Source: Amphibacillus sediminis NBRC 103570
Lineage (GTDB): Bacteria > Bacillota > Bacilli > Bacillales > Amphibacillaceae
Length of the DNA stretch: 32,000 bases
Direction: 5' to 3'
Assembly: GCF_001552275.1 (NCBI RefSeq)
Contig: NZ_BCQW01000001.1
Coordinates: forward strand, 366,800-398,799
The notes under the pieces: generated by a model
Database searches by the model: none
Told to the model about the DNA's origin: nothing
Seen by the model: only the letters and a program-made list of their open reading frames with translations
Shown: in pieces, positions 941-28,250 of the stretch
Layout of the letters: each line of letters opens with the position of its first letter
Position numbering within the stretch: the first letter of the stretch is position 1
Made by a program: the position numbers and the translations under genes

Positions 941-1050
941 GCACCTCCTTAAATAACTCAGACTCGCCATTACAGGTGTGAGCGGTCGCTCCCTTATAAC
1001 CTGTTCTGCGCGGTTGTAGCAACAGGTGCTACTTATTTGCATAACATTAA
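941..1050 (-). promoter_or_regulatory. Structured 5' leader of rplU operon (candidate L21 ribosomal-protein leader)
   Basis: About 100 nt between the RNase gene stop and rplU. It has nested helices on the minus strand (CACCUGUU...AACAGGU; GAGCG-ACC-GCUC). An L21 autoregulatory leader is known at this position in Bacilli. Not checked against a covariance model. Confidence 0.5.
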
Positions 1051-1064
1051 GATAATATCATGAA

Positions 1065-2513
1065 CTAAATAATCTTGTCAATGTTTCGAGGGGTTTTTTC
1101 CGCTAGATATGTATCAATCATCATAGACGATCCACTACGAACAAGGCGATAATGCTCCACACCCTTTGTTTCAATAAAATAAACAGAACAAGTTACATAG
1201 CGCGAAAGCCTATCGACTTGAATTAATCTTTGCCAGTGTTGTTTAAATGCTTTAGTCACATGAATGACGACGGCTTCATCCGTCATGCTCATTAATAACC
1301 GTTCAAGTTGATAGACCAAGCTCGCTAATGATGGTTTGTTAAGCTGCGTTGTCTTTTGACTCAGCATCAACTGGTGCATAGGCGCCTCTCGCTTTCTAGT
1401 CAGTTCCAGCAAACCTAATCGAGTAAAACCAACCACCTCTGTCCGTATCGGATCATCTTTCAAATGTTGTGACAGCATATCGATAATCGTCTTTTGATCT
1501 CGTTGTTTTTTCATTCTAATAAAGTCAATTAATATAATGCCTGACAGGTTACGTAGTCGCAACTGTCGGGCAATCGCTTCAGCCGCAATTTTATTTACTT
1601 GAAAAGCAAAATTCTGCTGATCAAGTTTTCCTGTATAACCTGCTGAGTTAACATCAATAACCGTTGCAGCTTCAAGCTGATCAATTGAAATCGTCACACC
1701 ATGCCGACAGTTTACCACTGGGTCAAGTAAAGATTGAAATAGTTGCTCCAATGGGATAGGTAATTGATTAAGTAAATCTTTTTGCCATTTCACTACCGAG
1801 CTTAATCCAGGAAAGCGTTTTTTTAGGTTATTTGCTGTTTCAACCTTGTCGCAAATAATCGATTTAATTGAATGATGAGGTAAACGACGGATAAAACGAT
1901 CTGTCACCGCATGATCATACCACAAACATTTAGGCTTAGTGGCTGAGTTGGCGATTATCTCAATTTCCTGCCATAGCTTACGCAACTGTTCTAGCTGCCC
2001 GATCAACTGTTCAATCGAAAGTAAGGCTGCTTGTGTTCGCACAATCACACCTTCTTTCTGTTGACATGCATCAATAAATAATTGTTTATATTGTTCACGC
2101 TGATTGGTATTAAGCTTTTTCGAAACAGCGACATAGTTCCCAAATGGTAAATATACAACTGCTTCACCTGGTATAGTAACATTCGCTGTTAAACGTGCGC
2201 CTTTTTCTTGATAAGCTTCTTTGATGACTTGTACAATGATCAGCTGACCTTGATCGATAAGAGACGCAATCCGCTTAGCTTGTTGCTGCTCTTGAGGTAT
2301 TTGTTTAAGTTCTAGATAACCTAATCGCTCTTGGCCAATATCAATAAAGGCAGCTTGCAAACCCTGATCAATTTTTGAAACCTTTCCAAGAAAGATTGAG
2401 CCAACTGATTGTGGATAGTCGGGTCGATCGAGCATTAAGTCAATAATTTGATTGTTTTTAAAGGCCAAGCCCATCTTTTCAGTCGGTTTTGTGATAATGT
2501 TTAGTTCAAGCAT
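1065..2513 (-). CDS. rng: Rne/Rng-family ribonuclease (RNase G-like) with N-terminal S1 domain
   Basis: The N-terminus VGSIFLGKVSKIDQGLQAAFIDIG is the S1-domain signature of RNase E/G. Likely start is ATG 2513 (MLELNII...) behind SD GTGAGG, rather than GTG 2525. Confidence 0.8.
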   Translation of the reverse strand: MLELNIITKPTEKMGLAFKNNQIIDLMLDRPDYPQSVGSIFLGKVSKIDQGLQAAFIDIGQERLGYLELKQIPQEQQQAKRIASLIDQGQLIIVQVIKEAYQEKGARLTANVTIPGEAVVYLPFGNYVAVSKKLNTNQREQYKQLFIDACQQKEGVIVRTQAALLSIEQLIGQLEQLRKLWQEIEIIANSATKPKCLWYDHAVTDRFIRRLPHHSIKSIICDKVETANNLKKRFPGLSSVVKWQKDLLNQLPIPLEQLFQSLLDPVVNCRHGVTISIDQLEAATVIDVNSAGYTGKLDQQNFAFQVNKIAAEAIARQLRLRNLSGIILIDFIRMKKQRDQKTIIDMLSQHLKDDPIRTEVVGFTRLGLLELTRKREAPMHQLMLSQKTTQLNKPSLASLVYQLERLLMSMTDEAVVIHVTKAFKQHWQRLIQVDRLSRYVTCSVYFIETKGVEHYRLVRSGSSMMIDTYLAEKTPRNIDKII

Positions 2514-2528
2514 AAGAACCCTCACTTT

Positions 2529-3374
2529 TTATTGCTTAATTAAGTCAGCTAGTTTGGCGTGATAATAACCTGTTTGAAAATAGTAATTCAAGCAAGTCTG
2601 CTCGTTCGTTAAAACATGCTGATCTTCAATTAGAATAGGATGAAAACAGCCAGCATAGAAGCGGGAAAATACTTCAATCATACTCGTCTGACTAGGAAAA
2701 CTTAAAGGAAGGAGCTTCTGGTTATCCTGATTTTGCTCCATCCGCTTAAGCAAAAAACGTTGAAAAACATAAAAGCGTTGCTTCCATTCTAGACGATTTT
2801 CCCAAATAAGAAAAGTAATGACGATAATCGCATTCAACAAATTATATTGATAGTAAAGTTGTCCAATCAAAAGTCCGAATAAGATTAGCATCGATAAAAT
2901 TAAGGTATAGTCATATGCTTTTTTAAATGGCAAACACTCACTCAGACCAATATGTAGGAGCTTCCCTCCATCTAAAGGCCAGGCCGGAATGAGGTTAAAG
3001 GCCAAAATAGCAAAGTTGTAACGTAAAGCAAACAAAATTAAATCTGTAGGTAAAAGGCCTATATAATGGATCCATAATAAAAGAAGATAGATAAACGCAT
3101 GCTGGATTGGACCAGCTACCGTAACAATAAGCTGCTCAATCATTGGTTTATGACCATGTTCTTCTGTTTCCATTACGCCTCCAAACAACCATATTGTGAC
3201 TCGAACAATCTTCCAATTAAAGAGCCGAGCAGCAATAAGATGACCAGCTTCATGCCAAATGACGATAATAAAAATGATCGAAACCTCGACAAACATACCT
3301 GTCAATAAAGAAACGACTATCGTCAACCAGATGGATGGATGTAAATGAATATGCTCTAACCATTTAATTGTCAT
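2529..3374 (-). CDS. spoIVFB: Stage IV sporulation pro-sigma-K processing metalloprotease SpoIVFB (M50 site-2 protease)
   Basis: HEAGH (HExxH) lies in a TM segment and is followed by NLIPAWPLDGG. The protein has multiple TM helices. It aligns along its length with my recollection of B. subtilis SpoIVFB and overlaps the spoIVFA stop. Confidence 0.88.
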   Translation of the reverse strand: MTIKWLEHIHLHPSIWLTIVVSLLTGMFVEVSIIFIIVIWHEAGHLIAARLFNWKIVRVTIWLFGGVMETEEHGHKPMIEQLIVTVAGPIQHAFIYLLLLWIHYIGLLPTDLILFALRYNFAILAFNLIPAWPLDGGKLLHIGLSECLPFKKAYDYTLILSMLILFGLLIGQLYYQYNLLNAIIVITFLIWENRLEWKQRFYVFQRFLLKRMEQNQDNQKLLPLSFPSQTSMIEVFSRFYAGCFHPILIEDQHVLTNEQTCLNYYFQTGYYHAKLADLIKQ

Positions 3375-8334: not shown

Positions 8335-8837
8335 TTCAATCGTCCTCTCTATACTCAAAAAATTCTCTATAATATCTTATAAGATGTTTTAAAAGCTGTT
8401 ATCTTATATCTTACCATAATTAAGAAGCGCCTACGTAAGATTTTTCTCTCAGTAGGTCGCTTTCAATTTGATAACTCACCTTTTTAATTATACGAGAATT
8501 TATCAAAAATAGATAGTCTTATTATGTGAACCTTTTTCATTTAGGAATAGATCATCACAACACTCCCGATAAAATGATCTAAAAGTTCTATTATAGATCT
8601 CTATAATTCTTTCACATTAGCACACAGCAAAGGAACTGATCGAAATCAAGCACCAAGTTCTAGCAGGGTGTAATAATGGTCGGGTGCTTTTTTTGTTAAA
8701 AATGTTAGATTCAGCTCCAGATATTGAAATGTAAAAATCATTTAATGCTGTTCCTAACTTTTTTAAAAAACAGGTGAAAAAACCTGATAAATCTCGTATA
8801 ATATCAGGGAATGTTTTTGAAAACAGGAGGGTTACAT

Positions 8838-9440
8838 ATGAAGTTTAAATTACTAATCATGCTCTTATCTACTTATTTTATATTAAGTGGTTGTGGGTCC
8901 GTTTTTAGAGATATTGCTGGCAGTAAGCCTACAGAGGAACCACCAACAACTGTTGTTGACGATGATACTATAGAGGAAAATGACGTGGATAATCAACATG
9001 TTGTCGAGAGTGATGAATCAGATCAACAAGATGTAGAGGATAAATCAGTAGAGGGAGAATACTTAATCGAACTTAATCAGCCAATAGCCGATAATGAGGA
9101 CTTCTCAGCAACTTTAGTTAGTATTGAGAAAATAATCGATGAATATTGGGATGAAGAAAGAATCGAAGTTACCTTTGATGTTCATAATAAAACAGACGAA
9201 ACTGTTACCTTTCAAGCTCGTGATGTGTCTGTTGATGGTAGAATGGTGAATGAACGAATATTATACATGAGTCAGGATGTAGCGAGTGGCAAATCAGCAT
9301 ATGCGGTCTTGACTATAGAAGACTATAATGGTGGTAAACTACCTGCATTTGAAACTGATTTTGAAATGCGTTTACATGTTTTTTCATTTGAAAATTACGA
9401 CTATGAAAACAGCGCTGATGTTCGGGTCGTATTTGATTGA
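8838..9440 (+). CDS. Putative lipoprotein with acidic linker and C-terminal beta-rich domain of unknown function
   Basis: MKFKLLIMLLSTYFILSGCGS contains a lipobox (LSGC). SD AGGAGG lies 8 nt upstream of ATG 8838. A D/E-rich linker is followed by a domain of about 120 aa. It is the only sizeable plus-strand gene in this part of the window. Confidence 0.75.
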   Translation: MKFKLLIMLLSTYFILSGCGSVFRDIAGSKPTEEPPTTVVDDDTIEENDVDNQHVVESDESDQQDVEDKSVEGEYLIELNQPIADNEDFSATLVSIEKIIDEYWDEERIEVTFDVHNKTDETVTFQARDVSVDGRMVNERILYMSQDVASGKSAYAVLTIEDYNGGKLPAFETDFEMRLHVFSFENYDYENSADVRVVFD

Positions 9441-9841: not shown

Positions 9842-9982
9842 TTAAACATACCCCTTCTCTTTTAAAGAAACAAATTTATGGTCACCTATAATTAAATGGT
9901 CTAACAGCTCTATTCCAATCATTTTTCCACACTCGACTAATCTCTTTGTTACATATATATCTTCTTGTGATGGTGATGGATC
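9842..9982 (-). CDS. radC: RadC-family JAB/MPN-domain protein, exon 2 (46 codons plus stop)
   Basis: The minus-strand translation is [46 protein letters not shown]. This is the canonical RadC C-terminus and completes the JAMM motif begun in exon 1. There is no start codon or SD of its own. Confidence 0.9.
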
Positions 9983-10019
9983 GTAGGGTCGATCTGTCCA
10001 TAGCGACAAACCTCCCTCA

Positions 10020-10053
10020 GAACCGTACGTACACCTTTCAATGTATACGGCTC
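10020..10053 (-). ncRNA. Group II intron catalytic domain V
   Basis: The minus-strand sequence is GAGCCGUAUACAUUGAAAGGUGUACGUACGGUUC. It has the AGC triad, a 2-nt bulge and a GAAA tetraloop, and is near-identical in its helices to my recollection of Ll.LtrB domain V (GAGCCGUAUACUCCGAGAGGGGUACGUACGGUUC). Confidence 0.9.
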
Positions 10054-11174
10054 GCCAGTTGATATGTGTCTACATGAAAACTAAACAGAGCAGGTTGTTT
10101 CGGCAAACGAATCGGCTTATATCCCTGTTCCTTCAGCCATTTGCCAGCCTTCGTTACGGAGCAGCCTTTCTTTAAGGCGATCGTTCTTAGTAAACTAAGT
10201 TGGGCAAAATAAAACAATTGGCCTAAAAAGCTATAGTTATCAGCATACTTAAATAAACAAGCAACTACAAAGCATTCTCTAGCATAGATATTAGCAATCT
10301 GATCAATAGGTAAATGAATAAGCGCTCCTCGGGGATATGGTTTTTTATTACACATACTTCCATACTGATGTAATTGCGCGATGTGTTCGAGGGCTTGCTT
10401 GGTAATTTCAAATCGGATACAGTTATGACGCTGGGAATAACGTATTGAATACCCTGCTAAGCGAATCGGCTTAGAGAAGTGATGGAAGTGAATACTATAA
10501 TCGGAGGCCAATTTTTCTTTCAATCTTTCAACTAATAATAGCGTAGAATTTTTATTGCAGATTAAAGCTAAATAAACTGTTTGGTTGGAGAAGCAATAAA
10601 AACAAGATGAGGAAGTGATCGGTAAAGCCTGAGGATATATAACATGCTGCGATAGTTGGATGGCCAAGCATAAGCCGTTAAAGCGTTCCTTTTGTGACTG
10701 TTGCAGGTGAGAGAAAAAAAGGCTAATTAATTTAATGAACCTTTGATCATCAATTAAGTGGCAAATCCGATTAGTAAAGGTATTTGGTCTAGATTGATAA
10801 CGAAGCTTGATTACCCAATGGACATTTTCCCAATTGGCCTTAATGTGGTTAAGACTTTGTTCTGGGCTTGAGTGATAAGCAGATCTTAAGCAAGGTGAAA
10901 TAAAAAGAAGCTCGATTACATAAATTAAACTTTCCATAACCCATGTACGTTTGATCATTTGAGCAATTGTTCCCCAATTGCTGGATCTCAATGCAAATAA
11001 AAGTTTGCTTAAATCATGATTCCTTGATCGTTGCCAGCTTTTAGTATGATAACTGGTCCGAAGCTCCTGCCAAAGCTCTCTTTGATATAATAAACGATAA
11101 CAATCCTTAATAAATTTCCCCTGTTTTAACCGTTCATGTAAGACTGAAAATTGATTAATCGGCTTAACTGTCAC
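10038..11174 (-). CDS. Group II intron-encoded protein: degenerate RT plus maturase (X) domain, no D/En domain
   Basis: It aligns with LtrA at RT0 ([11 protein letters not shown] vs LYRYLLRPDIY), at RT2a-4 ([11 protein letters not shown]...WVIKL...[14 protein letters not shown]), at the RT7/thumb region (VERLKEKL...RLAGYSIRY vs IKEQLKLF...RFLGYDIRV), and at domain X ([56 protein letters not shown]). YADD is replaced by YLAL. The start is GTG. Confidence 0.85.
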
Positions 11175-11401
11175 CTTCGTGACGCCCCCAATCCTTTTTC
11201 ATCTATCAACCTGCCTCCCTTCCCCCTGCTAAGCAGATTACCCGCAAACGTTGAGTACTATGGAGACTCCGTTACCCTATAGCAATCGCTACTTAGGTAA
11301 TCCCTACCTATCTGTTCAAAAAAGATACGTGATGGTTAGGTACTCCTTTTGACTGTTTCTCCAACTAGGAGATTGGTAGGTAGACCCTATCATAATCTAA
11401 G

Positions 11402-11407
11402 TCTGAC
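11402..11407 (-). other. Candidate EBS1 of the intron
   Basis: Minus-strand GUCAGA pairs with IBS1 UCUGGC, the last 6 nt of exon 1 (5 Watson-Crick pairs plus 1 G-U). Confidence 0.6.
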
Positions 11408-11455
11408 GAGCTTAGCTTATTCTACCTAAATAACACAAATGTTATCATGCATCCC

Positions 11456-11461
11456 CATCCA
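11456..11461 (-). other. Candidate EBS2 of the intron
   Basis: Minus-strand UGGAUG pairs perfectly with IBS2 CAUCCA (exon positions -12..-7). It lies about 50 nt upstream of EBS1 in the RNA, as expected for domain I of IIA/IIB introns. Confidence 0.6.
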
Positions 11462-11639
11462 TAAGTCTAGAGTTCAAGCAGTATAGCCTTTACCATACAT
11501 CACTTGACCAAGCCAATAGCTTTACACCATGCTCTTGTCCTCCATTATGTTTCCATTAGAAGTAAGGTGCTGGTCATAGAATCTGATAAGGAATTCTAGA
11601 TCTAATTGATCACTTTTATGAACAGCTTTGTAGGCGCAC

Positions 11640-12188
11640 GCCAGATGGATGATTGTGAACACAGATAATGGATGCTGCTGATCGTTTGACAGCTTCTCGA
11701 AATACCTCTCGTGGGTGCACTATACTTGAATTAAGGCTACCAATAAAGACAGTTTGACGATGAATAATTTGATTTTTTGTATTTAAGAAGAGGGCAACAA
11801 AATGCTCTTGCTTTAATAATCGCATATCTTCCATAACAAACTCAGCACCATCTTCAGGGCACCTGACTACATAACGTTCATTTGCAATTAGCCTATTCAT
11901 ACGATTTCCTAACTCAATGGTAGCAAGTATGCCCACTGCTTTTACCTGCCCGATTCCCTTAATGGCCATTAACTCTTCTAACGTTGCATCACGTAAAAGC
12001 TCAATCCCTTCAAAATGCATATAGACTCGTTTGGCTAATTCCTGTACACTCTCCTCTCTCGTCCCACTTCCGATGATAATCGCTAAAAGTTCTTGAAAAG
12101 ATAGGTGTGATGCCCCGTGTTCAATGAGTCTTTCCCTTGGTCTGTCTTTTTTCGGGATATCCTTCATTTTTAAATGAAGATTGGGCAT
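11640..12188 (-). CDS. radC: RadC-family JAB/MPN-domain protein, exon 1 (183 codons)
   Basis: MPNLHLKMKDIPKKDRPRERL...HhH-like LLAIIIGSGTREESV...GIGQVKA...CVHNHPSG. The ORF-track product continues VRLQSCS* into the intron. Spliced, the product is 229 aa, the normal RadC length. Confidence 0.92.
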
Positions 12189-16748: not shown

Positions 16749-16789
16749 AAAAAAAGCTCACAACATAAATAATCTTTTATGATGTCAGC
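16749..16789 (-). terminator. Intrinsic terminator in the pilC-pilA spacer (pilBTC terminator or pilA leader attenuator)
   Basis: Minus-strand GCUGACAUCAUAAA-AGAUUA-UUUAUGUUGUGAGC (14 stem positions, 2 mismatches) is directly followed by UUUUUUU. It lies about 80 nt upstream of the pilA ATG. Confidence 0.7.
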
Positions 16790-16871
16790 CGGTTGCACTA
16801 CTTGCTCCAAATTACCAAAGTGCCCAAATAAGGTAATTTATCATCGCATCTGAAATTGATTTTATAAAACT

Positions 16872-24939: not shown

Positions 24940-25100
24940 ATAAAGTGAAACTTTCGTTCAGTGGGGTTTCGACGCATAGGATGTGCTCGTGCAGACGTTG
25001 CGACACGACGTCGCGAGCCTTAGTCAGCTTCCTCTTCGCACACTGAACGTTAGTTGAACCAATCGGGCCGTTACTGGCTGTTGGATCTCCTACTTAGACA
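24940..25100 (-). ncRNA. Candidate structured RNA element, unclassified, in the folC 5' region
   Basis: Local G+C jump (36/60 in 24961..25020 versus 20/60 in 25101..25160, by my count). A 9-bp long-range helix (25038..25046 with 24952..24960) encloses a hairpin at 24983..25014 (CUCG-C-GACGU...ACGUC-UGCA-CGAG). A further hairpin lies at 25056..25081. There is no ORF. Strand is assigned only from context. Confidence 0.35.
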
Positions 25101-27964: not shown

Positions 27965-28250
27965 AAAATAAAAAACCCTTTTCGTCCTATAAAGGACGAA
28001 AAGGGTTGAGCAATCCGTGGTACCACCTTTGTTTATAGCCTATCATTGACTATACACTTCATTTTGATAACGGCTTTAACCGGTTTAACCTAGTAGTCAT
28101 TGTAATATGACGTTCAGTAAAACTACATCCAAGGCTACCTTCCACTGTCAGTGACTTAGAAATCTTCCAGCTAGTGATTTCCTCTCTGTCAAGTGTAAAC
28201 AATGTACTCTTCCTCTTCATCGTATTTTATTCGTTTCATTTCGTTTTGAT
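27965..28250 (-). promoter_or_regulatory. T-box riboswitch leader of valS (candidate GUA valine specifier)
   Basis: Stem I elements are present: a K-turn-like AUGAAGAGGAAGAGUA, the AG bay AGAGAGG and the distal loop GCUGGAAG. The specifier-loop GAAGGUAGCC has GUA at 28136..28138; the register is ambiguous with GGU. The T-box sequence AAAGGUGGUACCACGG is at 28015..28030. The terminator AACCCUUUUCGUCC/GGACGAAAAGGGUU plus a U-tract is at 27965..28007. Confidence 0.88.

Follow-up and report, generated by a model that had tools for sequence, protein, structure and literature searches.

The element which interrupts the radC gene of Amphibacillus sediminis NBRC 103570 is, judging from its sequence, very probably a splicing-competent but immobile (domesticated) group IIA intron of class ML, belonging to the homing family of the radC HNHPSG|D junction, i.e. 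the family of O.i.I2. As a retroelement it is decayed, since it possesses neither an RT active site nor an endonuclease. It would thus exemplify once more a state that is rare but already published, namely that of a bacterial intron which sits in a chromosomal gene and has kept splicing alone. The element resides within a stretch of 32,000 nucleotides (positions 366,800 to 398,799 of contig NZ_BCQW01000001.1, hereafter called the window), to which all coordinates refer.

The insert comprises 1657 nt of the minus strand (11639..9983), with GUGCGCC at 11639 forming its 5' end and CUAC at 9983 its 3' end; the coordinates given in the initial annotation all hold. The following features, all on the minus strand, were located:

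11640..12188: radC exon 1, 183 aa, ending ...VHNHPSG (Pfam UPF0758_N, HHH, RadC positions 2-76; NCBIfam RadC)
11640..11651: IBS2 CAUCCA (11651..11646) and IBS1 UCUGGC (11645..11640)
9983..11639: group IIA (ML class) intron, 1657 nt, phase 0
11303..11634: Domain I, basal stem CCUAC/GUAGG, from pair checks and constrained fold
11591..11585 and 11391..11385: alpha and alpha', pairing 7/7
~11553..11550: GAAA loop of Ic1
11497..11493: zeta receptor UAUGG, with CCUAA at 11340..11336
11456..11461: EBS2 UGGAUG
11397..11415: single Id3 hairpin with delta C11408 and EBS1 GUCAGA (11407..11402)
11213..11300: DII (11300..11272), J2/3 CGGA (11271..11268) and DIII (11267..11213)
10038..11174: degenerate intron-encoded protein in DIV, 378 aa, lacking YADD and HNH but keeping domain X; its stop codon overlaps DV
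10020..10053: Domain V, with AGC triad and GAAA tetraloop
9985..10017: Domain VI, branch A9989 (-7), flank A10013.G9990
9842..9982: radC exon 2, 46 aa, DPSPSQED...GYV stop, its first base G9982 being delta'

Assignment to group II follows from the DV hairpin with its AGC triad, the branch adenosine of DVI and the GUGYG...AY ends of a segment whose removal restores the host frame; EBS1 and EBS2, the delta-delta' pair, a branch adenosine 7 nt from the end and the YAY ending place the element in subgroup IIA. A match to RF00029 (10055..9983) reaches 61.1 bits (gathering threshold 40) and includes DV, and DV together with DVI folds from this region with a z-score of -4.3. The D1D4 models of Rfam, in contrast, gave no match to the intron even at E 10 and are uninformative; DIII is overlain by a weak Rfam match. 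Compared with lactococcal introns of the Ll.LtrB type (pAH82, p3107C), 5 of the 34 positions of DV are different, all of them in the distal helix and loop, in line with the initial annotation. Its placement of the branch site at A9989 is likewise correct, although the flank of this adenosine is an A10013.G9990 mismatch, common to the whole clade, instead of the G.U found in RT-intact relatives. Pair checks and a constrained fold, using element names from established IIA models, recover the stems of DII to DIV, J2/3 and the zeta receptor and with them the six-domain secondary structure, while an unconstrained MFE fold puts the Id stems in the wrong place. The asserted full set of ribozyme hallmarks is nevertheless not entirely present. 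DV/DVI, both EBS elements, delta, alpha-alpha' and the zeta receptor are there, but fold and pair checks reveal no beta-beta' complementarity between the Ic2 and Id2 loops of the window intron, and its DII loop, GAUU, is not recognisable as a GNRA eta loop. In full-length relatives a beta-type complement is visible. Both contacts are peripheral and do not define subgroup IIA. Since they are apparently lost and the branch site is flanked by A.G, protein-free self-splicing may be weak. Candidate motifs for the epsilon, lambda, kappa and theta contacts are present.

EBS2 pairs with CAUCCA in six of six Watson-Crick positions, and nothing else within the 5' 470 nt matches this hexamer 6/6. EBS1, situated in the loop of the hairpin CUAAG/CUUAG, matches UCUGGC in all six positions, one of them G-U. 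The annotated pairing of 12 out of 12 exon positions thus stands, as do its places in the intron, and it is extended to 13 out of 13 by delta C11408, overlooked before, which pairs with G9982 at position +1 of exon 2. An equivalent arrangement of EBS2 and delta-EBS1 arises by chance in 45 of 20000 shuffles. Upon transcription of radC the intron RNA would fold such that exon positions -12 to -1 are bound by EBS2 and EBS1 and position +1 by delta, whereupon DV would catalyse lariat splicing from A9989 to yield a 229-aa RadC. The RT-dead protein, presumably retained for its maturase domain, would most likely aid the folding of the RNA.

Host gene and intron-encoded protein

The insertion point is located in phase 0 within the JAB motif of RadC (HNHPSG|DPSPSQED). 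Removal of the intron leads to a 229-aa RadC whose JAB motif is intact, while the unspliced frame runs into a stop 7 codons into the intron. The interrupted gene is the only radC copy of the genome and lies between mreB and a SPOR-domain gene that is itself located downstream of a type IV pilus cluster. Exon 2, compared with relatives, exhibits pN values of 0.04-0.09 at pS values of 0.67-0.97, indicating strong purifying selection, which is hard to explain without splicing as this exon lacks its own start codon. If, instead, the intron were a dead remnant which no longer splices, radC would be a pseudogene and the exon pairings inherited leftovers. The loss of all RT catalytic motifs from the protein and a stop-bearing insert in exon 1 of a close relative (G066) would agree with such a situation. 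We regard it as highly improbable, however, because the exon 2 protein is 85-90% conserved despite saturated synonymous sites, the 378-codon ORF remains open (none of 2000 shuffles matches it) and the covariation of EBS and IBS persists.

Alignment of the window protein with full-length relatives reveals that it has lost PQG, YADD and the HNH domain while retaining domain X. A mobile retroelement carries an RT with YADD and an HNH endonuclease, both of which are missing here. A full-length relative, L142, to which the window protein aligns, carries RVT_1, maturase and AI2M-HNH domains and has LtrA as its best PDB match (E 6.6e-130, the next being 2e-42), which places the family in class ML. 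Splicing of radC could also proceed without the intron's own protein, by self-splicing or with the help of host chaperones or a maturase acting in trans, the ORF being kept for another reason. Three ORF-less introns at the very site of the window intron, L022 (706 nt), L046 (1067 nt) and L058 (552 nt), each with a perfect EBS1 and a delta-EBS1 pairing of 7/7, speak for this, as does the Pfam maturase match of the window protein, which is weak and below cut-off (E 0.013). We nonetheless deem it improbable, as all RT-dead pairs tested show purifying selection on domain X (dN/dS 0.13-0.35 within the clade of the window intron, the values for pairs of the window copy with relatives being rough since their dS is near saturation) and the only other RT matches in the genome are one frameshifted intron ORF and one fragment.

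The intron family at the radC junction

A search of GTDB with the junction pattern returned 88 records, 84 of which are true introns; the pattern matches L032, L043, L066, L089 and L124 turned out not to be introns and were dropped. In the host's own family the intron is present at the radC junction in 41 of 246 genomes (one false match removed) and the junction is uninterrupted in 187. Among 72 distinct complete introns, 22 retain YADD (~2530 nt) and 50 do not, and the series found at this single site extends from YADD forms via RT-dead ones to ORF-less forms of 552-1067 nt. No relative of the intron was found in a search of viral contigs. The window intron falls within a clade of 11 RT-dead introns from Amphibacillus, Halolactibacillus and Streptohalobacillus, in which intron distances follow RadC distances (rho 0.62, p 0.0005, 10 of the 11 tested); the clade co-diverges with radC, arguing for vertical inheritance. 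RT-intact introns, on the other hand, show no such relation to RadC (rho 0.01), and their divergence is much lower than that of their hosts (0.11 vs 0.39), as expected for horizontal spread. Parsimony (4-7 changes) suggests multiple independent losses of the RT; yet one common clade of all RT-dead introns is not rejected by AU tests (p 0.105 and 0.131), and repeated independent loss was not retained as a finding.

To count matches between guides and exons, EBS1 candidates were chosen blind to the exon of the respective intron. Of 49 RT-dead introns, 45 have an EBS1 that fits their own exon in all six positions (permuted mean 12.7, maximum 21), compared with only 8 of 25 among RT-intact introns; related introns are not independent, so that these counts overstate the number of events, although the matches cover many exon variants and lineages. 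Opposite exon position -10, where the His codon has C or U, EBS2 forms a Watson-Crick pair in 34 of 39 RT-dead copies (A-U in 15, G-C in 19), while the RT-intact introns keep a G which reads both. Delta changes from C to U where exon 2 begins with A (L031, L076 and L071). In a few members of the clade (L057, L105) EBS2 is not recognisable. Across the relatives EBS1, EBS2 and delta evidently covary with synonymous exon changes. This covariation is the decisive support for the initial view that the intron is able to splice at this junction rather than being a decayed remnant, a view further backed by the purifying selection on exon 2 and on the maturase domain and by the lack of another radC.

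An ML-class radC intron with an open protein lacking YADD has been published: O.i.I2 from Oceanobacillus iheyensis, reported by Simon et al. 2008 and summarised in the review PMC4424553, according to which no other bacterial intron has a degenerate protein. This single example compares with 50 complete RT-dead copies found here at the radC junction. The window intron, sharing with O.i.I2 the radC site and an open RT-dead ML protein, is of the same type. Our relative L127 we take to be O.i.I2 of O. iheyensis HTE831. It has an identical radC junction and an open RT-dead protein 25% identical to that of the window (E 5e-21), but measures 1948 nt with an AGY-type EBS1, compared with 1657 nt and a TCN-type EBS1, and stands apart from the 11-member clade. 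With Ll.LtrB of Lactococcus lactis the window intron has in common the GUGCGCC start, contiguous IBS2 and IBS1, recognition of the 3' exon via delta-delta', the adenosine at -7 and 29 of 34 positions of DV; Ll.LtrB, however, is mobile (RT, X, D, En) and lies in a plasmid relaxase gene, whereas the window copy is RT- and En-dead and chromosomal. The chloroplast trnK intron with MatK is likewise a IIA intron in a conserved host gene whose RT-degenerate protein conserves domain X (PMC4424553). It works alike but shares no membership, the window intron being bacterial and independently derived, and there is no evidence that its protein serves other introns in trans. The radC series from mobile via maturase-only to ORF-less introns, along which exon pairing becomes tighter, makes an organelle-like path of domestication testable in culturable bacteria.

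Two EBS1-like loops in mobile relatives

In all 25 alignable RT-intact (YADD) relatives Id3 is forked into two hairpins, each of which harbours a delta and an EBS1-like hexamer. One loop of the Ser-TCN and one of the Ser-AGY type occur in 18 of them, two TCN variants in 4, and one decayed loop in 3. A Calditrichia copy also has both loops. Most RT-dead copies have lost the spare hairpin by deletion, and in most of the others it is decayed, the survivor being either loop a or loop b; the window intron has one loop only, with an EBS1 of the TCN type. We give even chances to the idea that in the mobile ancestors two interchangeable EBS1 loops enabled one RNA to splice from, and home into, radC targets of both the TCN and the AGY type, and that, once mobility was lost, the idle loop decayed while the active one was perfected. 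Accordingly, the mobile ancestor would have covered both serine codon types of its target by alternative EBS1 hairpins, and the vertically inherited window copy would have lost the spare one and been selected for a perfect match with its resident exon.

As an alternative, the second loop may be a non-functional duplicate or have another partner, only one loop ever having acted as EBS1. Tandem duplication could account for the likeness of the two loops, single-sequence folds do not always yield both hairpins, and the stem covariation of the hairpins traces partly to one lineage. We still consider this alternative rather unlikely. Which loop fits the resident exon differs between introns, being loop a in some and loop b in others, and in one group the loop types are swapped between the two positions. 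All seven introns with an AGY exon pair via their AGY loop (5-6/6), the other loop attaining at most 4/6. The idle loop fits some Ser-Gly target 6/6 in 22 of 25 introns (4.7% for random hexamers), and in 18 of 25 by Watson-Crick pairs only (chance 0.6%), while no conserved alternative partner was found for it in the exons or the intron.

Ll.LtrB is described with one EBS1 loop. The arrangement of two interchangeable loops appears to be an undescribed design: literature searches for two, duplicated or alternative EBS1 loops gave nothing relevant, though Simon et al. 2008 and the group II intron database may mention a second loop; “EBS1a/b”, considered as a precedent, proved to be mutant names (PMC3753933). 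What is new is the proposed collapse of a two-loop ancestor into a single tuned loop, the window element itself being a further O.i.I2-type member. The share of family exons matched in at least five of six positions is 0.72 with two loops vs 0.55 with the best single loop. Provided that both loops are functional, the guide for the 5' splice site can be duplicated and switched inside one ribozyme, which would have a bearing on the structure of group II introns and the design of targetrons.

Further introns in radC and other elements of the window

A second break in radC, HPREV|F/Y, is located 60 nt upstream of the junction in L139/L015 (G036), L057, L022, L146, L046, L054, L067, L078, L080, L092 and L108 as well as in a plasmid JAB gene (L157). 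In the copies read, L015 (~730 nt), L057 (~510 nt), L146 and L157, the break is due to another group II intron of ML-like type, ORF-less or decayed in L015, L057 and L146. The two radC introns leave a 60-nt exon between them; the HPREV|F/Y intron is absent from the window. L148 (G064) and L150 (G061) carry a third intron, starting with GUGCGACACG, whose insertion point lies 8 nt upstream of that of the resident intron. The copy in L148 comprises 1011 nt without a long ORF and leaves an 8-nt exon, splitting IBS2, so that ordered splicing would be needed; that of L150 ends at a contig break. At the end of radC exon 1 of L147 (G066), two tandem copies of ~57 nt with an in-frame stop lie between IBS2 and IBS1, reflecting either a broken radC or an assembly artefact. 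The radC gene of L007/L021 (Gracilibacillus dipsosauri) has a further interruption close to residue 150, formed by unrelated DNA that is probably an integrated element.

The genome of the window has another group II intron (G000:C18, ~2050-3368, L018), whose RT ORF is frameshifted and which adjoins an IS66-like ORF. Scans for promoters and terminators and for repeats stayed at chance level. A T-box leader (27989..28229), an L21 leader (950..1025) and a Bacillaceae-1 RNA (24973..25038), all on the minus strand, are ordinary. Between radC and mreB lies a lone plus-strand gene (8811..9440), coding for a lipoprotein-like protein of 209 aa (weak DUF5067). Within the type IV pilus cluster, a c-di-GMP-II riboswitch (16778..16860, minus strand) is found just downstream of a pilC-like gene, and the PilB of this cluster exhibits an MshE-type c-di-GMP motif.
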